Shown here in pieces: positions 822-11,556 of a stretch of DNA of 11,556 bases; position 1 is the first letter of the stretch, and every line of letters starts with the position of its first letter. The notes under the pieces are model-generated. The model was not told the DNA's origin. It was given only the letters and a program-made list of their open reading frames with translations, and searched no databases. This DNA comes from Candidatus Heimdallarchaeota archaeon (GTDB taxonomy: Archaea > Asgardarchaeota > Heimdallarchaeia > Hodarchaeales > Hodarchaeaceae), in the NCBI GenBank assembly GCA_020353515.1, contig CP070695.1:212948-224503 (forward strand), read 5' to 3'. The translations under genes and the position numbers were made by a program.

Positions 822-3800
822 GTGGTTTTAATATTGATATTAAATCATAAAGGAAGAATAAAAAATCAGATTGGTTGTTCTTTGTCTTTCATTTTCCTAG
901 TACTAATTATTTTTCCCTTTTCGATTAACAAGCGTGTTCCTCTTGATTCAACATCATTGGACAAGGATACAATTATTGAGAGGCTTTTGAATTCAGGGGG
1001 AGGAGTGGGTAGTAGCATTGGAATTGAAATTAAAATTGATACTGTTTATGATGCCACGGATGAATATAATCCTGGTCCGAATGTGGTCTTCATTAATGAT
1101 TCCCATGGATATATGTTCTTCCAAAAAACAAATAATGACAGAGCTGAAATCGTTTACTATAAAACGACGGATAATGGCTCAAGCTGGTCTGGGCCCAAGA
1201 ACATTGATTGTGGCCCTCCCCAGTACACATTCCGAAGCTTTTCATGTTGGTACGACCAATGGACACCTAATAATTCAGGGACAAAGATACACTTTATTGT
1301 TAATGGATTTGATAATGATGAAATGGTCTATAATTATTTAAATACCTCAGATGATAGTACCAACGGAACTTGGACTTCTGTGATGGCTTCTGGTGGTTCA
1401 CATAATGCACCAGACGGTGGAGGAGTGGTTACAGTATCAACAGAGGGTTTTATCTTTGGAGCTTCGTGGATGGCTAATGGACCACAATTTGGAAAATATA
1501 TATCAAGTTGGTCGGATATTACGCCGACTTATCCGTTCTTGGATGACGATGACGACCACGGGCAGCTCTTTCCTTTGAACGGGGGGGATATTCTCAGCCT
1601 GTACGAGGATTCAACAGCTAATACTCTCTATTCTTTTGTATATTATGAAACAACTGATACTTGGGATGCTTCTGCAACTACAGTGACTAATATTACTTCA
1701 GAAAGCTCAATAGGAACTGAAGACGCCAATTGGGGAGCAGTATTAGACCCTTCTACTCATAATGTATACTTATTGTTGAACAATGATATTTTAAACTCTA
1801 GTGGGGATTTAGAAACATGGATTTTCTTTAATAGTAATCGGTCGTGGAGTCGAAAGACTAACGTAGTTACTAACATTGGGACTGATGGGGATGAAGTTAA
1901 ACCTGCTTATGATTATGCCAGTAAAACTTTATTTGCCATTTATGTCAACGGGGATAATATTTTCGTTAAAAACTCAACGGATGGAGGAGGCTCATGGGGA
2001 TCAGCTCTGGAAGTCACCACTGCTAGTCGGGAGTGGAATGTTATTCGGACGAATTTCATTTCAATCAATAGAATTTATGTGATCTATTTTGATGAGGGAA
2101 ACGATGAAGTGTTCGGTAATACTATTGCTGATTTGAAATTAGGACAGGAGAATGCAACTATACAAGTTAATGTCAAAGATTTAGATAATAGGGATGTTCC
2201 GAATGCGCGGGTGAATCTTACAGATTCTGGGAATCCAGTACTAACCTGGATCCAAAATACAACGAGTGGAGGGTATACCATATTCACCAACCTCCCTTTT
2301 AGTTATTATAATATCACAGTTGAGTATGAGGACTCTATAAACGATACATTAACCTTTCTGGAAATAGTGGGAGAAAACCCTTACGAAACTGACCCCCAAT
2401 TTGAATTTACAGTTATTGTCTCTGAATATATAGATAATTTTCTTCCAGTAGTGGAAAATATATACTTTGATAATGATACTAATACCTTCTTTGCTCATGT
2501 TTTTGATGAGAGCGTAATATCTTCTGTGTATCTAAATTTAACTGCGATTAATCTTACTGATGCCATGGTGTGTATTAACCAGACAAAATTTTTAATGGTT
2601 GAACAAACAGAAAATCAATATTATAATGCTACAGCACTCAATACCTTAACTAATAACGATGTCAAGGTATTTTACAATATTATCGCCTCTGATATAGCCA
2701 ACAATACTAGAGTGACCAAGATTCGATCTCTGAATTTACAAGATATCATTCCCCCAACAATCCATGAATATAATGTGACTGATTATGGGAATGGAACACT
2801 TCAATTCTATGCTAATATAACGGACGATTCCAGCTTTATACAGGATCCTGTTGAACTAAAAATCAATGAAAGTCTGGTACTAATGCATCTAAATAGCTCT
2901 GGTTATTGGATCTACTGGACACAGGCTTTCTATGGAAAATCCCTAATTTTTACAATTTATTCAGTCAACGACAGTGTAGGAAATGAGAATGGTTCGAAAG
3001 TTGATTCTCTAATTCCTCCATATAAGGTAATTACTCCTTCAGACAACGTTCCCCCAGTTATTTGGGGAACCACAGACACTTTTAGCAACCATCAAAAGGG
3101 ATACGTAAATTTCTCAACATACATTAACGACTGGAATGACTATCAGAGTGGTGTGAATACTAGCGAAGTTAAAATAATTCTTTCAAAAAATAATCAAAAT
3201 TTAACCTATCTTATGGAGGCTGTAGAAGAAGAAAGATATTATTTTGAATTTACTTTTGAATTTAATGATAATATTACATATTGGATTACTGCAATTGATC
3301 TGGCTGGTAATATAAATCCTGGTTACCGACATAATTTCATCATTGATGATAATAGCATCCCAGACGTAACATTTGAAGCAAGAGAATTTGGAAATAGTAC
3401 AGTAGAATTTACAGCTAAAGTTATAGATTGGCCAAATAATCAGACAACAGTTACTCTTTATTTTACACAAGACTACTTTGGTACATGGATGAATACTTCA
3501 ATGATGAATATCACAGAGAATACATTTACTAAGCGCCTTCAGGACTTTGATTATAACCGATACGACGTCTGGTATTACGTGACTGCCAATGATACGGCGC
3601 ACAACTTATTTGAACCATCTTCTGATCAATTTTCTAAGATTGAATTAACTGATAAAGTATCACCTGAAGTGACATTCACCATTACAAATTCCTCAGAAAA
3701 TGATGGCGAAATCACCATCATTGCGTGGGCTATTGACTCCTATGGAAGGACACTGTACATAAATAACACATTTTATATAAATATAACAACCCCAGAAGGA

Positions 3801-6047
3801 ACGCTTAGATCTGAGATGGAATATGAAGCCTTTAATTATCATTTTTTTACTCAAAGCTTCAAATACAGTGAGCAGGTATCGATTCTAATTTACACGATGG
3901 ATGAAGCAGGTAATTTAGGAAAAATCAACAAAACTATAATTATAGGAGATTTTACTCCGCCTAAAATCGAAAAATGGGGTGTTCAGGAATATCAGACTGG
4001 GATTATTACTATATGGGCTGAGATAATAGAGGGAGTCAATGGAAGTGGGTTACCTACAGATAACTCATCAATTATGCTCGAATATACTTTTATAACAATT
4101 AATGAAGTCCCAATGGTTTGGAATGGTTCGAACAATTTTTTTGAATATACTTTATCAACGTTCAAACCTGGAGACACAATCGTTTTCCGTATTCAAGCTT
4201 CTGACATTATCGGTAACACCAATTCAATTCCATTAGAACTCTTTACCGTTCCTGATACTACACCTCCAGTAATCTATGATTATGGTTATTCAGAGTCGTT
4301 ACTATCAAGTTATGAGTCTACATTAGAATTCTGGGTAAACACCCTTGATCCATTTGGATTGATTACCAATGTAACAATATCTATTTTTAATTTCAATTCA
4401 TCTCAAAGAGAAACAGAAATAATGAATCTTAATGGATCATATTATTACTATACAGCTAGAATCGTATGCACACATATTTTTAATTATAGTATTGTAGTTC
4501 AAGATGGATGGAACGTTGTTACTGTCAGTAACATCAGTTTACAAGCATCTAACTTCCACCCTCCTGAAATTATTGACTTTGGAATGAAGTTTAATCAATC
4601 GGAAAGTCATATAGGACAAGCTCAATTTTATATTGAGATAAATACTACCTTTCAAAATAATGTTAATGTAACTCTCTCTGTATTCGACGAAACAGAAGCT
4701 ATTTGGGTTTTGCATCAATTTCTCTTGAAGGACACGTTCCTGAATACAAGCAACATCGTTTATTACATTTATTTGGAGTTGTCCTATCAGCATATTTTTT
4801 CCTTTACTTTTCATGTAACCGATTACGGTGTTATGGAAGGTTATTATCATTTTGACGACTTTTTTAATTCCAGAATAATGGAGGATAATTGGGGGCCTAT
4901 AATTTATCGGCAGGGAATTGACGATTTTGGTAATGGCACCCTCAGGGTGTGGGCCAACGTCTCTGATTGGGGGTCTGGAGTGGCTGCAGTTTTCCTTGAT
5001 TATTATCCACCAAATACCTCTAAATTTTTGGTGGGCCTCGGGGCGGAATCCCCACTTCAAACAGTCCCTATGCATTTTAATGGAAGCTTTTACATCGGGA
5101 TACTTACTTTTTCTGCAAGTGGAACCTTGAAAGGAGTTATTAGAGCTATAGACCATGCTGGTTTTTCTAGCCATACTATTGATTTATCTGAAGAGCCTTA
5201 TTTCTTTGCTATACGAAAGAACAATATTGAATGGAGTGATATAATCCCGTTATTGATAGTAGTGGGAGTTATCCCAGTTCTACTGATGACTCTTGCTATT
5301 ATGGCTCGGAAGCATCAGCAGAAACGACTAGTAATTCATAAAAGAAAACAAAAAGAAATTCTAGATAAAAGCTCTGACATCTTTTCTTTACGAGCGATTA
5401 TCTGTCGAAATCAGTTTGGACTCGCTTTTTATACCGAAAATTTCATGGGAAGAGATCAAGATGAAGATATAATTGCCGGAGTAACCTCTGCAATGTCCAT
5501 TATGGTTAGTGAAATAGCCCAACAAGAAATAAAGAGTGGGGAATTTGATGTCTTGGAACGAGAGAGATTTAACATTCTTTCTTACCATGGTAAGTATGTC
5601 ATCATAAGTGTGATATCAGAAGAGAAATTGAGTTCCTTCATGAAATCAAAGATAAAGGAGCTGACTTATCAAATTGAAAGTCAGTTTGCTAAGGAAGTAT
5701 TAGAAGGCCCAATTATTGAAGTAAAGGAAAAAATGAGAAAAATAGTATATGAAACGCTCCCTGTGGGATTACTTCAGCTTCTAACTGTCGATCACATGCT
5801 TTTAAAAGAAAAAAAGAAACAATTTAAGAAAAATGAGAGAAAATGGTTTAGATATTTAAACGAAATTCCTTCTTCTATTGATGGACAACAAGCATTTTAC
5901 GCCATGGCATTTATTTCCTCCTTTACTGCTCATGGAATTCCCTTTGTAAAATCGTTTCGTTTTCTTGATCGCTGTTACAACCTCGGTGTTATTCGAAACC
6001 TTTCAGAAGTTGATAGAAGATCTATTGACAAACCTTCAACCACCTAA
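822..6047 (+). CDS. Large single-pass cell-surface glycoprotein/receptor: BNR/Asp-box beta-propeller, carboxypeptidase-regulatory-like domain, nine Ig-like repeats, TM helix, cytoplasmic longin/roadblock-like + winged-helix-like domains
   Basis: 1741-aa ORF, GTG start (TTG 834 possible; in-frame TAG at 798-800). N-terminal basic + hydrophobic segment. Asp-boxes KTTDNGSSW (1161-1187) and NSTDGGGSW (1971-1997). TIQVNVKDLDNRDVPNARVNL...GGYTIFTNLPFSYYNITV is typical of CarboxypepD_reg-like domains. D-x-x-x-P repeat starts recur every ~300 nt. TM IIPLLIVVGVIPVLLMTLAIMA (5241-5306) is followed by basic RKHQQKR. Longin-like pattern LRAIICRNQFGLAFY...DEDIIAGVTSAMSIMVSEI...FNILSYHGKYVIISVISEE. Confidence 0.92.
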   Translation: MVLILILNHKGRIKNQIGCSLSFIFLVLIIFPFSINKRVPLDSTSLDKDTIIERLLNSGGGVGSSIGIEIKIDTVYDATDEYNPGPNVVFINDSHGYMFFQKTNNDRAEIVYYKTTDNGSSWSGPKNIDCGPPQYTFRSFSCWYDQWTPNNSGTKIHFIVNGFDNDEMVYNYLNTSDDSTNGTWTSVMASGGSHNAPDGGGVVTVSTEGFIFGASWMANGPQFGKYISSWSDITPTYPFLDDDDDHGQLFPLNGGDILSLYEDSTANTLYSFVYYETTDTWDASATTVTNITSESSIGTEDANWGAVLDPSTHNVYLLLNNDILNSSGDLETWIFFNSNRSWSRKTNVVTNIGTDGDEVKPAYDYASKTLFAIYVNGDNIFVKNSTDGGGSWGSALEVTTASREWNVIRTNFISINRIYVIYFDEGNDEVFGNTIADLKLGQENATIQVNVKDLDNRDVPNARVNLTDSGNPVLTWIQNTTSGGYTIFTNLPFSYYNITVEYEDSINDTLTFLEIVGENPYETDPQFEFTVIVSEYIDNFLPVVENIYFDNDTNTFFAHVFDESVISSVYLNLTAINLTDAMVCINQTKFLMVEQTENQYYNATALNTLTNNDVKVFYNIIASDIANNTRVTKIRSLNLQDIIPPTIHEYNVTDYGNGTLQFYANITDDSSFIQDPVELKINESLVLMHLNSSGYWIYWTQAFYGKSLIFTIYSVNDSVGNENGSKVDSLIPPYKVITPSDNVPPVIWGTTDTFSNHQKGYVNFSTYINDWNDYQSGVNTSEVKIILSKNNQNLTYLMEAVEEERYYFEFTFEFNDNITYWITAIDLAGNINPGYRHNFIIDDNSIPDVTFEAREFGNSTVEFTAKVIDWPNNQTTVTLYFTQDYFGTWMNTSMMNITENTFTKRLQDFDYNRYDVWYYVTANDTAHNLFEPSSDQFSKIELTDKVSPEVTFTITNSSENDGEITIIAWAIDSYGRTLYINNTFYINITTPEGTLRSEMEYEAFNYHFFTQSFKYSEQVSILIYTMDEAGNLGKINKTIIIGDFTPPKIEKWGVQEYQTGIITIWAEIIEGVNGSGLPTDNSSIMLEYTFITINEVPMVWNGSNNFFEYTLSTFKPGDTIVFRIQASDIIGNTNSIPLELFTVPDTTPPVIYDYGYSESLLSSYESTLEFWVNTLDPFGLITNVTISIFNFNSSQRETEIMNLNGSYYYYTARIVCTHIFNYSIVVQDGWNVVTVSNISLQASNFHPPEIIDFGMKFNQSESHIGQAQFYIEINTTFQNNVNVTLSVFDETEAIWVLHQFLLKDTFLNTSNIVYYIYLELSYQHIFSFTFHVTDYGVMEGYYHFDDFFNSRIMEDNWGPIIYRQGIDDFGNGTLRVWANVSDWGSGVAAVFLDYYPPNTSKFLVGLGAESPLQTVPMHFNGSFYIGILTFSASGTLKGVIRAIDHAGFSSHTIDLSEEPYFFAIRKNNIEWSDIIPLLIVVGVIPVLLMTLAIMARKHQQKRLVIHKRKQKEILDKSSDIFSLRAIICRNQFGLAFYTENFMGRDQDEDIIAGVTSAMSIMVSEIAQQEIKSGEFDVLERERFNILSYHGKYVIISVISEEKLSSFMKSKIKELTYQIESQFAKEVLEGPIIEVKEKMRKIVYETLPVGLLQLLTVDHMLLKEKKKQFKKNERKWFRYLNEIPSSIDGQQAFYAMAFISSFTAHGIPFVKSFRFLDRCYNLGVIRNLSEVDRRSIDKPSTT
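2433..5200 (+). repeat. Nine diverged ~100-aa Ig-like repeats within the 1741-aa CDS
   Basis: Repeat starts DNFLP 2433, DIIPP 2742, DNVPP 3042, DNSIP 3348, DKVSP 3651, DFTPP 3948, DTTPP 4254, NFHPP 4551, DNWGP 4884. Most end in an A-x-D-x-x-G-N-like motif (ASDIANN, VNDSVGN, AIDLAGN, ANDTAHN, TMDEAGN, ASDIIGN, AIDHAGF). The right boundary is approximate. Confidence 0.8.
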
Positions 6048-6260: not shown

Positions 6261-7793
6261 TTATTTAGAGTTTCGTCTTCTTCTTCTATAGAGGAAAACA
6301 CCTGCAATCAAAAAAGCTATAATAGGAATTATTTCAAACCCTGAAGTACCCTCACCATCACTCCAGTCAGAAGAAAAATCTTCTTCAGTGATAGGTTCTT
6401 CGGGTGTGGTCGTCAGCTCTTCATTTGTGGTAAAGGTTAGATAACTTGAATCGTCAGGATATCGATGAGTATTATCATCGTCAGGTCCAGGAAATTCAAG
6501 ATCGTGAGTAATCTCGAGATAGTATGAATATTCGGAATTGGGAATGAGTCCAGTTAAGGTGATAACATGATTAAGAGACAGTGAGGTAACTTCAGTTGAG
6601 TAAGTTGGCGTACCAACGCCATAATAACATACCACAAAACCTTCTTTATGGAGTGTTAGTGTAATAGTTGCAGAGTTTGTAGTAGATACACTGAGGGTAG
6701 AAACACAACTATGTAGTACGTTCATAAGAGCGGCATATGCTCTTTTGAATTCCTTGATGGCATTGTCGTATTTTCCCTGGCCAATCTTTGTGAGTGCATT
6801 TTCATATTTTTCTTGTGCTTCAATAACGTGTGGATTTTCCTCTCCGACCAACTCAATGGCATCATTCATCGCTTGATCTACTATACATTGAACCAAATCG
6901 ATGAGATTATCAATAACTTCCTGGGTACCAGCACCATCCTCATTTTGGGCATCCATCAGGTCTTCGACTGCGTATCTGATCTTGCGAAATGCACATCCGA
7001 TGAGCTCTCTCTCGAATGCTTCTATCGCCTTTTCAAGATAGTCTATAGCGTCGTTAATTTCATCTTCCGCTTCTGAATTCTCAATATCTTCTAATAAAGC
7101 TATTTGTTCTTCAATATATTCTATTGGTGAGGAACATGTGTCTTCGTCGTCATCATCGAAAGGTGGGGTTGCAGTAGCAATACCTATATTTCCAGCGTCA
7201 TCTACAGCTGTAACTTTGAGTAAATCAGTAACCATTGAAATAGGCTCTCCTTCAAAATTCGTTAGTTCTATTTTCCCTGTTTGGGGTTCCAATAGCTCTA
7301 TCTCTACTTTGTCATCTTTCAGCTCGATCTGCAGAAGCTGACCATTATCTACTACTAGTCCCCCAAGATCTATGAGATCGTTCAAGATTTTTTCTGAATC
7401 AGGACCTTCTATTTCTATTTCTTCATCATCATAATTGACTTCTATTTTGATCTCAGATGGATCATTTTCCCATTCAGCCCAATCAAGCCAACCTTCTGGT
7501 AAGAAGATCTGGAGAATCGCGGTGATCTCGGGTTCAGGATCATTATCAGTTACAGTGAAATAAATAACGAATATTCCTTCCATGCTTTCCACATGGGTTG
7601 GAATGAAAGCTGCTTCGACTAATGGGTCAGTAATGTCACCCTCCTCCCCAGTCACCCCTAGGTCGATGTCTAAACGGTCACTAAGAGGAATCAATCCAGA
7701 AAGAAGCGATCCAGAAACAGCTACAAGTAATAAAATGGATGGTATGACAAGTATCAGAATACAACTCAGTTGAATTTCAGTGATTTTTTTCAT
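6261..7793 (-). CDS. Acidic cell-surface protein with PGF-CTERM-like (SGF variant) sorting signal; Ig-like domain, helical-bundle region, FN3-like domain
   Basis: 510 aa. Signal peptide MKKITEIQLSCILILVIPSILLLVAVSG. Ig-like DITDPLV...LKVTAVDDAGN. Two Cys-bracketed amphipathic helical units. FN3/purple-acid-phosphatase-N-like STTNSATITL...YGVGT...HVITLTGLIPNSEYSYYLE. Thr/Glu-rich linker, then TSGFE-IIPIIAFLIAGVFLY-RRRRR. SD-like GGAGTG upstream. Confidence 0.9.
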   Translation of the reverse strand: MKKITEIQLSCILILVIPSILLLVAVSGSLLSGLIPLSDRLDIDLGVTGEEGDITDPLVEAAFIPTHVESMEGIFVIYFTVTDNDPEPEITAILQIFLPEGWLDWAEWENDPSEIKIEVNYDDEEIEIEGPDSEKILNDLIDLGGLVVDNGQLLQIELKDDKVEIELLEPQTGKIELTNFEGEPISMVTDLLKVTAVDDAGNIGIATATPPFDDDDEDTCSSPIEYIEEQIALLEDIENSEAEDEINDAIDYLEKAIEAFERELIGCAFRKIRYAVEDLMDAQNEDGAGTQEVIDNLIDLVQCIVDQAMNDAIELVGEENPHVIEAQEKYENALTKIGQGKYDNAIKEFKRAYAALMNVLHSCVSTLSVSTTNSATITLTLHKEGFVVCYYGVGTPTYSTEVTSLSLNHVITLTGLIPNSEYSYYLEITHDLEFPGPDDDNTHRYPDDSSYLTFTTNEELTTTPEEPITEEDFSSDWSDGEGTSGFEIIPIIAFLIAGVFLYRRRRRNSK

Positions 7794-7952: not shown

Positions 7953-8600
7953 CTACACCGATTCACCCATGAGTCGAAATGAAAGACGGAAAAGGTTTCC
8001 AGGAGTCGCACCAGGAGCCACAGCTTGGTCATTTATCCAAAATCGAAATGTAATATATTCTATATCCCCAGCTACCATTGATGATAGTCCAGCGTCTGAC
8101 TGTCCAAAATCTGTTTTAAACCCATTGGTATGAGGTGAAGGTAAAGGATTCATACCTCCGTCATAAGGAGCCCAGTCGGTGGATGTCATACCCAAGTTAC
8201 TGTAGGAGAGTACGCCAGCCAAACCATCTCCATTGGCCCATTCAGTACCCATATCATTTGCGTCCTGCATACCGGCAGGGTCATCGGTTTGTATTACAAT
8301 TTCTATATAGAGATCCCATTCGCCGGCAACTCCAGAATCAGCCTCTATTTCCAGTACGACATAATACCAAGTTAAATAATTAACATAACCTGGTGAACCA
8401 TGTGGAATATCTGTATCAAACGCTAAGGTGAAAAGGCCAAGTCCTGTCACTGCAATATCATCTTGTTCGGTTGTAGCTGGATTGGAATCTAGTCTTGTCC
8501 ATTTTAAAACCTCAATAACCGTGCCTACTGCCATTGTAGAACCCACCAGTATTACAGCTATTAGAGGAATTATTCTCTTTAATTTATTCATTTTTTTCAC
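7953..8600 (-). CDS. Secreted beta-rich protein without C-terminal anchor; possible TasA/camelysin-like filament subunit
   Basis: 215-aa ORF (GTG). ATG 8591 (212 aa) is the more likely start, with SD-like GAAGTG just upstream. Signal peptide MNKLKRIIPLIAVILVGSTMAVG. Alternating beta-strand patterns and a C-terminal LSSMVAGDIEYITFRFWINDQA...GNLFRLSFRLMGE. The CDS itself is confident; the family call is tentative. Confidence 0.85.
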   Translation of the reverse strand: MKKMNKLKRIIPLIAVILVGSTMAVGTVIEVLKWTRLDSNPATTEQDDIAVTGLGLFTLAFDTDIPHGSPGYVNYLTWYYVVLEIEADSGVAGEWDLYIEIVIQTDDPAGMQDANDMGTEWANGDGLAGVLSYSNLGMTSTDWAPYDGGMNPLPSPHTNGFKTDFGQSDAGLSSMVAGDIEYITFRFWINDQAVAPGATPGNLFRLSFRLMGESV

Positions 8601-8702
8601 TTCTTTTTACTTTATTTTCTTTGCCTCTTTATCTCTTATCAGACCAAAATAGCTAAATTACCAATCTGTATGGTGAAATAATTAAATTTAGCTGCATTGG
8701 GC

Positions 8703-8738
8703 TTCTATAAAGTTTAAAAACAGTATTTCAGTACTGTT
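8703..8738 (-). promoter_or_regulatory. Putative promoter of the 215-aa gene: TATA-like TTTTTAAACTTTATA with adjacent palindrome AACAGTA-N6-TACTGTT
   Basis: Perfect 7-bp inverted repeat (8719-8725/8732-8738) directly upstream of TTTAAA/TTTATA boxes on the minus strand, ~110-130 nt before the start codon. Confidence 0.45.
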
Positions 8739-9165
8739 GTACACTCCTGAATATGCTGATGTTGCATCTCCCGCTCTCTGTTTACTACGTAAGGAGTTTT
8801 ATTCTCGAGATCGAGGAATATTTATCCAAACCATTTTTGTTGTTGAGGCTATCGTATTCTGAATCGGGAATTCAGCATGTAACGATTCTCAGTGTTCTTT
8901 TCGTTATCCTTTTGTTTTTAAACAATGGAATCAAAATCATTCCAATCACTTATAAGTTTTTCTACAAATATAAATCTATGCAGCTATAGACATACATTTA
9001 ATTTATTTAACACTAGTTATTGGTAAGCTTACGTCTTAAGCACATCATATTATAAAAACGTTACTAGTCCATGTCTCAATTGAGAAATAAAATATCACAA
9101 TAAAGTTCTTAAAATTGATTGTTCTTTTATGATTACTCTTTTGGAATGATTCCCTATTGAATAAA

Positions 9166-9600
9166 CTACAAAAATCCCCTTTGGATAATCAATAACTCAT
9201 TTATTATTTGAAGAACACTATTTTCTAATTGGCGGATATTTTCTCAGGTAAAAGGCCTTTCTATAAACAAATTATTATTGAAAAAATAACTAAATCAGAT
9301 TTCTTTTGAAATCAGGAGTAGTTTGTGACTAGAGTGGTATCTACATCGCTTGTGAATGATGAATCCACTTAATGTTCCTTTGCTTAGAATTGTTAAAATT
9401 ATCAAGAAGGTTTCACTTCCATTACCATTAATTAGAGGTACCTTTATCACTTTCCCTTCTTACCCTATTAGATCTAGGATATCCGTAAAATTAGTATTGT
9501 GTTTTCAACAACACTCACTTTCACTAATTTAAGAAGAAATCCCTCAAGGTATATCGCTAATGCTATATCTATTATCCTAAAAACTCACCCGTCTCCAACA
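9166..9600 (-). pseudogene. Decayed tandem paralog of the 3' end (last Ig repeat, TM anchor, cytoplasmic tail) of the adjacent 9628-11556 gene
   Basis: Collinear matches in manual translation (relic vs intact): IIDIALAIYLEGF vs IDDTAIIVNIEGL; VKVSVVEN vs VIVNVVDT; TNFTD vs TNSTD; GNGSETFLIILTILSKGTLSGFIIHK vs GEGTGTWLIPALLVSSTGAFAGIFIFK; FIERPFT*ENIRQLENSVLQIINEL vs FLEETGINKQLQNLEQRVAKLRGNL. Identical nt blocks at equivalent positions: 9538-9547=10046-10055 and 9314-9324=9754-9764. It carries in-frame stops, frameshifts and a deletion. Confidence 0.75.
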
Positions 9601-9614
9601 TTAATGGAGAACGG
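9579..9614 (-). terminator. Hairpin + T5 just after the stop of the Ig-repeat gene
   Basis: Minus strand CCGTTCTCCA-TTAATGT-TGGAGACGG followed by GTGAGTTTTT. It overlaps the start of the pseudogene relic, so it may be fortuitous. Confidence 0.3.
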
Positions 9615-9627
9615 TCTTGCGTATTAA

Positions 9628-11556
9628 TTAATATTCAAGATTTCCTCTTAATTTTGCAACTCTTTGTTCTAAATTCTGGAGTTGTTTATTAATTCCCGTT
9701 TCCTCAAGGAACTGTACAGTCGAATCAGTTGATCGAAACAATCCCTCAATAGTAGGAGTAGTTTTATGATGATTATTTTTATTCTTAAACCACTTGAAAA
9801 TGAAAATCCCTGCGAATGCTCCAGTGCTTGATACTAACAAAGCTGGTATCAACCAAGTACCTGTACCCTCACCTTCACTCAAAGATTCATCCCTATTCCC
9901 TATTTCTCCTTTTTCGTAAAAATTATCTGTTGAATTAGTGAAAGAAGGCGCTGCAGTATCAACAACGTTTACTATAACTGTGTCAATAGCTGAATTATTA
10001 TACGAATCTCTAACTGTAAGATTATAAAAATACACTCCAGTTGATAATCCCTCAATGTTAACTATTATAGCTGTATCATCTATCCATACTCCAGTCTCTA
10101 TTTCTGTTTCATTCCTATAGACACTATAGGTATCAGGATTCGTATCACTAACTGTCCAGCTGATTTTACATCCTATTTCTCCTTCCTCATAGGTAATATC
10201 TGATGGACTTATTACTTCCGGTGCTGAAGTATCAGGAACTACGGTCACAAGGACTGTATCATTAACCGTATATCCAACAGAATTACAAACTGAAAGCTTA
10301 AAATCATATACACCAATTGAAAGGCCGTCTACACCAAAAACTACCGTTAGTTTAGATATCCACTCCCCAGTTTCAATTTCTTTTCCATTCTGATAGATGA
10401 TATAACTATCAGGGTTCGAACCTATGACAGTCCAGTAGATCATGTTCCCTGTCGCTCCTTCCTCATAGGTGATATCATTAGAACTTGTTAAACTAGGTAC
10501 CATAGCAATATCAATGACTGTAACTACTACTGTGTCAAAAACCAAATTCTCGTATGTATCCTCAACAATGAGTGTATAGCTATAAGATCCAGATGATAGC
10601 CCATCTATGCTTATTTGAATCGGGTTCCCAGATATCCACGACCCTTTTTCGAACCTTAAACCATCTTTATAGATAAAATAGTTATCAGGATCAGAATCAA
10701 TGGCAACCCAACTGATATTATACCCTGTCGACCCTTCTATGTATGAAATATCTTCAGGACTCGTTAAAGTAGGAGCCATGGTGATATCAACTGTAACCAT
10801 TACTGTGTCGTTAATTGAGTTCCCATCTGAATCCTCAACAATGAGTGTAAAGTTATAGAATCCAACCGTTAGCCCATCTATGCTTATTTGAATCGGGTTC
10901 CCAGATATCCACGACCCTATTTCGATATTTCCGCCGTTTTTGTAGATAGTATAGTTGTCAGGATCAGAATCAATGACTGTCCAGCTTAGAGTGTGTCCTA
11001 CAGTCCCCTCAATATAAGTGATATCACTGGGAGTGGCAGAAAACACTGGGTAACTATCGTCAATAACCGTGCATAGCCAGTCAATAGTATTCCAGGCAAG
11101 AATCTCGTTGTCGCTATCATAGTAATCAAGATCTCCATCATTATCAGCATCATACGCACTATCCCATAAATTAGAATCTCCGAGAATGCATATTTTTCCC
11201 GTACCAATAGAACCACCCTCAATGACACTCATCACAGAAACAGCGTTAGCAATTGTTCCGTCATCCCATTTGGCTGTCCCATCACTATCAGTAATAATGA
11301 TAGGAATATCATTGATTGGTGCAGCAATTAAGCCATCTCCTGCATACATCTCAACACGAGAAACACCATCTGTAATAGGATGAGAGAGGAGGTTTGTATC
11401 ATCATAACTTATACGAAAATCATATCCTGTCATTACACTGTCATCAGAATCGTTTAATTTGTTGTTTGCAAAATCATATCCGAATAGAGACGCTAAGAGA
11501 TCCATTTGTGTCCCATATTGTTCCCAATCTGAAATCAATAATAAACTACCCCCATT
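9628..11556 (-). CDS. 5'-truncated membrane-anchored surface protein: GldG/DUF4350 (class I GATase-like/GIFT) domain, four Ig-like repeats plus a truncated fifth, TM helix, ~55-aa cytoplasmic tail
   Basis: The frame is open to the window edge (NGGSLLLISDWEQYG...), so TTG 11538 is probably not the true start. GGSLLLISD, HPITDGV, GKICILGDSNLW and DNEILAWNTIDWL are hallmark motifs of DUF4350/GldG-like domains. DADNDGD is a Ca-binding-like motif. TM WLIPALLVSSTGAFAGIFIF (9855-9796) is followed by KWFKNK. Confidence 0.9.
   Translation of the reverse strand, partial: NGGSLLLISDWEQYGTQMDLLASLFGYDFANNKLNDSDDSVMTGYDFRISYDDTNLLSHPITDGVSRVEMYAGDGLIAAPINDIPIIITDSDGTAKWDDGTIANAVSVMSVIEGGSIGTGKICILGDSNLWDSAYDADNDGDLDYYDSDNEILAWNTIDWLCTVIDDSYPVFSATPSDITYIEGTVGHTLSWTVIDSDPDNYTIYKNGGNIEIGSWISGNPIQISIDGLTVGFYNFTLIVEDSDGNSINDTVMVTVDITMAPTLTSPEDISYIEGSTGYNISWVAIDSDPDNYFIYKDGLRFEKGSWISGNPIQISIDGLSSGSYSYTLIVEDTYENLVFDTVVVTVIDIAMVPSLTSSNDITYEEGATGNMIYWTVIGSNPDSYIIYQNGKEIETGEWISKLTVVFGVDGLSIGVYDFKLSVCNSVGYTVNDTVLVTVVPDTSAPEVISPSDITYEEGEIGCKISWTVSDTNPDTYSVYRNETEIETGVWIDDTAIIVNIEGLSTGVYFYNLTVRDSYNNSAIDTVIVNVVDTAAPSFTNSTDNFYEKGEIGNRDESLSEGEGTGTWLIPALLVSSTGAFAGIFIFKWFKNKNNHHKTTPTIEGLFRSTDSTVQFLEETGINKQLQNLEQRVAKLRGNLEY
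9895..11061 (-). repeat. Tandem ~91-93-aa Ig-like repeats (4 complete + 22-aa stub)
   Basis: Consensus P-x-x-x-x-P-x-DITYxEGxxGxxIxWxxxDxxPDxYxIYxNG...GxW...IDGLxxGxYxxTLxVxD...DTVxVTV. Repeats 1 and 2 are offset by 273 nt and share a 49-nt identical block (10597-10645 = 10870-10918). Confidence 0.92.

Follow-up and report, generated by a model that had tools for sequence, protein, structure and literature searches.

What does a giant archaeal surface protein do with a folded domain on the inner face of its membrane? The question is raised by a single gene in an 11,556-nucleotide stretch of Candidatus Heimdallarchaeota archaeon DNA (hereafter the window), which covers positions 212,948–224,503 of a single-contig 4.94-Mb genome and encodes a 1,741-residue protein whose relatives carry the labels Hodarchaeales, Heimdallarchaeota or Promethearchaeota. 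A first-pass annotation, made from the sequence alone, had read this protein as a single-pass receptor with an Asp-box propeller on a stalk and a cytoplasmic part combining a longin-like and a winged-helix-like module. Our analysis confidently predicts that the first half of the cytoplasmic tail adopts a true longin fold, one that belongs to no named sequence family (the features described below are collected in Table 1).

The orientation of the protein in the membrane can be read from its composition. Hydropathy analysis detects just two hydrophobic segments in the 1,741 residues (aa 15–37 and 1473–1495), in agreement with the proposed layout of one signal segment and one transmembrane (TM) helix, and the N-terminal layout is the same in a relative that is 83% identical (P0105). 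The gene starts at either GTG 822 or TTG 834, the public record of the same protein beginning at residue 5 (TTG 834). The ectodomain contains 56 N-x-S/T sequons, as opposed to 24 ± 4 in composition-matched shuffles, and has an isoelectric point (pI) of 4.2, whereas the 246-residue tail has a single sequon and a pI of 9.4, with the motif RKHQQKR immediately C-terminal of the TM helix. The excess of sequons outside, the acidic ectodomain and the basic tail argue for a type I topology, so that sequons, pI and charge all place the tail in the cytoplasm rather than outside the cell, and the basic cytoplasmic part of about 245 residues claimed in the first-pass annotation is recovered. By these sequence properties the protein is a single-pass type I, heavily glycosylated surface protein with a cytoplasmic C terminus.

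The tail was modelled with AlphaFold2 on a 44-sequence alignment of relatives, yielding a 246-residue model with a predicted local distance difference test (pLDDT) score of 89.3 and a predicted template modelling (pTM) score of 0.83. In the DSSP assignment a helix at model residues 2–26 is followed by strands at 28–35 and 40–45, a helix at 53–71, strands at 80–85, 88–94 and 98–104, a helix at 110–126 and further helices. This is the beta-beta-alpha-beta-beta-beta-alpha-alpha pattern that had been proposed for nt 5373–5760, seen in the model at nt 5385–5777. As in longins, the five strands form an antiparallel sheet in longin order with no N-terminal helix inside the fold; structural alignments start at model residue 22–27, past the juxtamembrane helix. 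A VIA-align search of 48,161 PDB representatives with the tail model, which is independent of Foldseek, placed longin domains in rows 1–21 of the ranking (Z 10.3–13.0), among them sedlin (Z 13.0; root mean square deviation (rmsd) 2.5 Å over 124 residues), VAMP7 (12.7), synbindin (12.2), AP-3 sigma (11.9), Sec22 and Ykt6 (11.6), the AP-2 mu N-terminal domain (11.4) and the Lokiarchaeota longin 8yqg_B (10.5). FLCN, SMCR8, Lst4 and Mon1–Ccz1 scored about 9–10, and roadblock, MglB and LAMTOR proteins about 8 (8.0–8.4). Foldseek returned 35 matches at E < 1e-3, every one of them longin or roadblock, and with the longins at Z 10–13 ahead of the roadblocks at about 8 the longin-like fold suspected at first pass is borne out. 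Neither the tail nor its profile matched any Pfam or NCBIfam family, PDB sequence and profile searches with them were empty, and such searches with the whole protein or the head were equally unproductive. The domain does not qualify as Roadblock/LC7 (PF03259), whose elements run alpha-beta-beta-alpha-beta-beta-beta; that family was matched by 1 of the 44 relatives (E 0.022) and scores a structural Z of about 8. When the tail was compared by hhalign, as a possible tethered version, with soluble proteins of the same genome that combine a longin and a winged helix and are associated with MinD, the probability was only 21% (E 0.001), and the alignment covered the longin part. Longin/roadblock platforms usually bind their GTPase as dimers; a co-fold of two copies of the tail as a homodimer scored 0.11 relative to a mark of 0.42, a result that counts neither way.

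Behind the longin domain lies a basic C-terminal subdomain. The last 111 residues (aa 1631–1741) folded alone gave a pLDDT of 83, with helices at 64–73 and 78–90 and a strand at 94–96 that are compatible with a winged helix, in which a three-helix bundle carries a beta-hairpin wing behind its third helix. Most of its 50 structural neighbours are of winged-helix type, including ribosomally synthesized and post-translationally modified peptide (RiPP) recognition elements, MCM/ORC/Cdc6, NB-ARC winged helices, Fur/Zur, MarR, DEP and Rpa2, at Z 4.6–6.6 where the tool's level for unrelated models is 7–8; Foldseek found nothing below E = 1 for this subdomain (best E 1.3). Among the ESM Atlas neighbours of the tail as a whole is one Asgard cluster with the winged helix-turn-helix family HTH_47 in half of its members. 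The winged helix suggested for this end of the protein is thus plausible from the model and the kind of neighbours it attracts, although the similarity itself lies below significance. Such a fold invites comparison with membrane-tethered transcription regulators of the ToxR/CadC kind, in which the winged-helix-like end would bind DNA while the ectodomain senses a ligand, and the pI of 9.9 together with the presence of MarR, Fur and other DNA-binding winged helices among the neighbours would suit that role. We nevertheless judge it highly improbable. Besides the sub-significant matches, the conserved positions of the would-be recognition helix (aa 1708–1721) are mainly hydrophobic (F, L, C) and the subdomain appears packed with the longin domain as one compact body (pTM 0.83), which makes the reading of DNA unlikely, and 3–9 proteins per genome with huge adhesin-like ectodomains are unlike known one-component regulators.

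The tail is widely distributed. The last 252 residues of the protein recur in 14 long Asgard proteins at 48–67% identity under differing ectodomains (LamG, DUF2341, BNR), and all named members of the family are Asgard proteins annotated as 'hypothetical protein'. When 1.8 billion representatives were searched exhaustively and without a profile, the tail gave 92 clusters, with the match nearly always at the extreme C terminus. The tail profile matches 280 of 301 Asgard genomes drawn from all over the phylum, usually three to nine times each and about 1,300 times in total; 89 of the 90 genomes of high quality and 66 of 70 genera are represented. In all of the 46 representatives examined the tail is C-terminal and a hydrophobic segment ends no more than 25 residues before it. 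TM helix, juxtamembrane helix, longin domain and C-terminal domain (CTD) are therefore, as far as sequence comparison tells, a constant cassette on which the ectodomain varies. Nine matches fall in the window genome. The full tail is present in three of them (the window gene and one frame each at 2.118 and 3.379 Mb); the others are more distant, six in number, and cover the longin part only. A paralogue in this genome, P0109 (2,180 aa; 2,428,249–2,434,810, minus strand), has a head 66% identical to the window head behind an added LamG/DUF2341 N terminus and ends in a distant longin tail (hhalign 96.9%, E 1.4e-10), so that by alignment one head type is joined to two different longin tails within one genome. 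A candidate stand-alone soluble copy of the tail, a 251-aa frame at G113:C25, is cut by the contig end and so shows nothing.

Longins are abundant in these organisms, with 41 domains in Lokiarchaeum and a superfamily of 130 Asgard clusters of orthologous genes (asCOGs), and the known Asgard longin/roadblock fusions involve GTPases, TRAPPC3 and two-component domains (PMC4917890, PMC10933270, bioRxiv 10.1101/2020.10.19.343400). The window longin belongs to the same large Asgard superfamily expansion as the soluble longin and roadblock proteins of the phylum (8yqg Roadblock-Longin; Thor/MK-D1 roadblocks), sharing their fold with a Z of 10.5 to 8yqg_B. Those described forms are soluble or fused, whereas here a domain with no named family is tethered by a TM helix behind an ectodomain. 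No account of a longin tethered by a TM helix behind an extracellular domain turned up in a literature search that was not exhaustive, so that a prior mention is possible. The window contributes a longin copy whose head is of BNR type, a census across the whole phylum, the rule that the tail always comes after a TM segment, and the pairing of one head with two tails. We regard the protein as an architectural variant of an already known fold family, whose function we infer.

Comparison with eukaryotic longins (sedlin/synbindin, VAMP7, Sec22b, Ykt6, AP sigma/mu, COPI zeta) reveals the same fold (Z 11–13, rmsd 2.5–3.3 Å over 115–127 residues) and a shared place of action at the cytoplasmic face of the membrane. 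The sequence relation, by contrast, is undetectable, the SNARE motif is missing here and the winged-helix-like subdomain is extra. The window longin also follows a TM helix at the C terminus of a giant extracellular protein, whereas a longin SNARE lies wholly in the cytosol and is anchored by its C terminus, and the subunits of TRAPP and AP are soluble proteins. Since AP sigma, the AP mu N-terminal domains and COPI zeta are among the best structural neighbours, the tail could be a handle for sorting or turnover that is grasped by endosomal sorting complex required for transport (ESCRT)-type, vesicle-budding or quality-control machinery, in effect a cargo tail and a small adaptor chain fused in cis, and the universal presence of the cassette in Asgard archaea, which also carry ESCRT systems, would suit such a use. 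We consider this improbable, given that no coat or ESCRT gene lies beside the close relatives P0004 or P0002 and that internal membranes or vesicle trafficking have not been demonstrated in cultured Asgard archaea (PMC10933270).

The reading that we tentatively prefer is that the cassette forms a membrane-fixed docking platform for a conserved partner, most likely a Ras-superfamily small GTPase. In the anatomy described here a stalk of repeated modules holds the BNR/sialidase-type tip off the cell, and the TM helix runs on as a rigid, basic helix that leads into the longin domain in the cytoplasm, which is packed, in the model, on the winged-helix-like subdomain. On the inner face of the membrane, the cassette would then tie surface proteins to one conserved cytoplasmic partner. 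A Ras-superfamily GTPase appears the most likely candidate because longin platforms bind such proteins in TRAPP, Mon1–Ccz1, SRX–SRbeta and the AP/COPI small chains; in eukaryotes these platforms either bind small GTPases or build adaptor cores (PMC10933270). Lokiarchaeum is without prenylation machinery, Asgard GTPases are without lipid anchors and internal membranes have not been observed (PMC4917890, PMC10933270), and because the GTPases have no such anchors, tethering a longin by a TM helix would offer an easy means of recruiting them to the membrane beneath a particular surface protein. The docking model can be extended to a version in which the cassette places Rab/Arf/Rag-like GTPases lacking lipid anchors on the plasma membrane under specific surface receptors, the receptor being the membrane-bound half of a guanine nucleotide exchange factor or GTPase-activating protein platform or of an adaptor. 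The family would then be an early, single-chain version of the eukaryotic logic that pairs a cargo receptor with a longin adaptor (AP sigma/mu, TRAPP, SRX–SRbeta) and would link outside contact to GTPase-driven remodelling of the membrane or cytoskeleton, and we think this rather improbable.

The gene neighbourhoods bear directly on a GTPase partner. The window genome contains 64 Ras-family and 10 roadblock matches, and three of the nine family members in it lie within 3 kb of a Ras-family (Rab-like) gene, all three of them distant paralogues. Two Rab-like genes immediately precede that of P0109 on the same strand (G000:C1:2428249-2436254). Several family members also adjoin Ras-family genes in five other complete or near-complete Asgard genomes, and at two loci from two Asgard families (L023 and L024) a gene for a GTPase of the roadblock-Ras type lies 0.9–1.2 kb upstream of a receptor with the longin plus CTD module. 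A number of observations weigh against the GTPase reading. Genome-wide, the nearest Ras-family gene is 67 kb and the nearest roadblock gene 76 kb from the window gene, and none of the three paralogues with the full tail lies within 23 kb of a GTPase gene. The adjacency of three members in nine, compared with 1.0 expected, is not significant (P = 0.07, permutation). The neighbourhoods of the close relatives P0004 and P0002 have nothing in common and contain neither GTPase nor roadblock genes. Among sequence families, Longin PF13774, Sedlin_N, Sybindin and Clat_adaptor_s gave no match at E ≤ 0.1 with the tail or its 44 aligned relatives, and the longin fold has several unrelated uses, including SNARE regulation, the signal recognition particle (SRP) receptor and adaptor cores. 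The coupling to small-GTPase signalling or membrane remodelling suggested in the first-pass annotation finds no support in the neighbourhood of the window gene or of these two relatives. A GTPase link of the tail would be a reasonable proposal from the fold class and the scattered linkage in the wider family.

Some of these loci have features that are of interest in their own right. Both L023 (1795–12836) and L024 (1184–8120) bring together, in this order, a Ras-family GTPase, an ATP-grasp_5 protein and a giant receptor. The GTPases are 358–359 aa long, with a roadblock N terminus (a roadblock-Ras fusion) in L024, the ATP-grasp_5 proteins are 57% identical to each other, and the receptors, of 1,553–3,031 aa, carry the longin plus CTD module internally, followed by 230–390 further residues. 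About 8 kb upstream of P0002, a gene for a ParA/MinD-type ATPase is followed by a 190-aa gene (L011, 585–1942), an arrangement reminiscent of the MinD-associated proteins mentioned above; no significant similarity to the receptor tail was found.

A prokaryotic precedent for the logic of a docking platform exists in the Streptomyces conservons, where the membrane sensor CvnA, the roadblock/LC7 protein CvnB and the Ras-like GTPase CvnD are encoded in one operon, and a related case is the MglA–MglB pair. The proposed arrangement resembles these systems in combining a prokaryotic membrane sensor, a protein of the roadblock/longin superfamily and a small GTPase. It differs from them in that they consist of separate proteins with a roadblock fold, whereas in the window protein sensor and longin platform are one chain with no linked GTPase gene.

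The solitary position of the window gene, with no signalling neighbours, could also reflect a tail that works without any GTPase and fastens coat proteins to an actin- or tubulin-like cytoskeleton, to a membrane-shaping lattice or to each other. Such an anchor would place adhesins on protrusions, in the way that the tails of cadherins or integrins connect their ectodomains with the cytoskeleton. It would account for the occurrence of the same tail on many unrelated ectodomains and for its rigid junction with the TM segment through a continuous helix, and the window is an island of surface proteins (see below). We hold this purely structural role to be somewhat unlikely: in none of the loci examined is a cytoskeletal gene linked to the tail, the longins known so far do not bind the cytoskeleton, in contrast to the related profilin fold, and the distant paralogues adjoin Rab-like genes.

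Whatever binds the tail, the docking platform would serve a head that can be classified by homology. The two Asp-boxes noticed in the first-pass annotation are present (TTDNGSSW and STDGGGSW), and the head's own Pfam match to BNR_2 (PF13088) is sub-threshold (E 0.06). Residues 40–470 have 36 homologues, with E down to 1e-239; among 18 aligned head homologues BNR_2 is matched by eight and the BNR repeat family by two, and those with BNR_2 inside the aligned unit are related at E 1e-40 to 1e-170, one of them over the cut-off. Pairwise alignment shows aa 73–437 to be a discrete unit, present in four tandem copies in P0113 and two in P0127, and the BNR_2 matches of both proteins fall within it. 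By transitive homology the head is best classed as a sialidase-superfamily BNR module of about 365 aa, roughly the size of a six-bladed propeller. Catalytic sialidases carry an (F)RIP motif and an arginine triad. No R[IVL]P motif occurs in aa 73–437, which contain only seven arginines, and because of the missing RIP motif classical sialidase chemistry is doubtful; the head probably binds or cleaves carbohydrate.

Relatives of the head unit are found in giant proteins from both Asgard archaea and candidate-phyla-radiation bacteria. P0113, P0127, P0120, P0126 and P0131 are labelled Dojkabacteria, Paceibacterota or Falkowbacteria, and there the unit is found in two to four tandem copies. This distribution suggests a mobile adhesion or glycan-binding module common to Asgard archaea and episymbiotic bacteria.

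The likeness to Vps10/sortilin receptors drawn in the first-pass annotation did not hold for the head. Both are type I membrane proteins with an Asp-box head and a cytoplasmic part that meets adaptor-type folds. However, sortilin carries a propeller of 10 blades and about 700 aa together with 10CC modules, for which a BNR_2-homologous unit of about 365 aa is too small, and no Sortilin-Vps10 Pfam match was found at E ≤ 1. The tails differ as well, since sortilin has a short peptide motif to which separate adaptors bind, whereas here an adaptor-like fold is predicted within the receptor chain itself.

Between head and membrane lies the stalk, for which about 10 beta-sandwich domains had been claimed. 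A profile seeded with aa 635–744 and 1349–1470, which recognise each other at E 2e-6, matches aa 1037–1148 strongly, giving three clearly related copies. Three marginal copies scored 10.4, 9.1 and 8.1 bits, compared with 7.7 for the best of 300 shuffled decoys, and the remainder are too diverged. The profile tiles aa 535–1470 with a period of about 100 residues, which makes the number of some 10 modules plausible; the beta-sandwich part of the claim goes beyond the repeat pattern, and the modules may have an immunoglobulin (Ig)-like fold.

Table 1. Features of the window, with positions counted from its first nucleotide
Feature	Position (nt)	Strand	Basis
Whole gene, 1741-aa type I surface glycoprotein (predicted)	822..6047	+	stop 6045-6047; sole long frame in region
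Signal peptide or signal anchor, aa 15-37, preceded by basic n-region	864..932	+	hydropathy
Head, BNR/sialidase-type module, aa 73-437	1038..2132	+	homology; two Asp-boxes, no RIP motif
Asp-box 1, TTDNGSSW, aa 115	1164-1187	+	motif in sequence
Asp-box 2, STDGGGSW, aa 385	1974-1997	+	motif in sequence
CarboxypepD_reg / Big_1-like beta-sandwich candidate, aa 446-503	2157..2330	+	Pfam E 0.0017, under cut-off
Stalk, about nine diverged ~100-aa repeats, aa 535-1470, sequon-rich	2424..5231	+	iterated profile vs shuffled decoys
Single TM helix, aa 1473-1495	5238..5306	+	hydropathy
Basic juxtamembrane helix, aa 1496-1521, pI 10.6, from TM into first longin strand	5307..5384	+	model pLDDT 93-95
Longin-fold domain (predicted), aa 1522-1652, beta-beta-alpha-beta-beta-beta-alpha-alpha	5385..5777	+	AlphaFold2 model, VIA-align, Foldseek
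Basic C-terminal subdomain, aa 1653-1741, pI 9.9, winged-helix-like	5778..6044	+	model pLDDT 83, structural neighbours
Very acidic secreted protein, 510 aa, N-terminal signal, C-terminal Heimdall-CTERM-type sorting signal GFEIIPIIAFLIAGVFLYRRRRR	6261-7793	-	sequence
Signal-anchored protein, 215 aa, no family match	7953-8600	-	sequence
AT-rich stretch of ~1 kb, GC content about 0.30, no open reading frame >=80 aa, no Rfam match	8601-9627		
Protein >640 aa with PKD/Ig-like domains, runs off window	9628-11556	-	K319L-like PKD, E 1e-14

The genes beside the receptor also point to the cell surface. The 510-aa protein reaches 23.1 bits with NCBIfam NF045529, for which the cut-off is 24, and matches no other family, and an Rfam scan of the whole window gave no match. 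The sequencing runs in which this DNA occurs are all sediment metagenomes, with no RNA run listed among them. From its predicted products, the window is a surface-protein island made up of the main gene, the 215-aa protein and the PKD/Ig-like protein.

Asgard genomes carry dozens of small GTPases and longin/roadblock proteins, and it is their site of action that matters here. A longin fused to a TM helix marks a well-defined place at the membrane and supplies a well-defined bait, and it recurs under many heads in almost all Asgard genomes. The 246-residue tail could be expressed alone to fish for its partner, which would put this genotype-based proposal to a test at the bench. If the partner proves to be a GTPase, the family would provide the first known case of a receptor wired to a GTPase among the archaeal relatives of eukaryotes; otherwise, the cassette would represent a new use of the longin fold.

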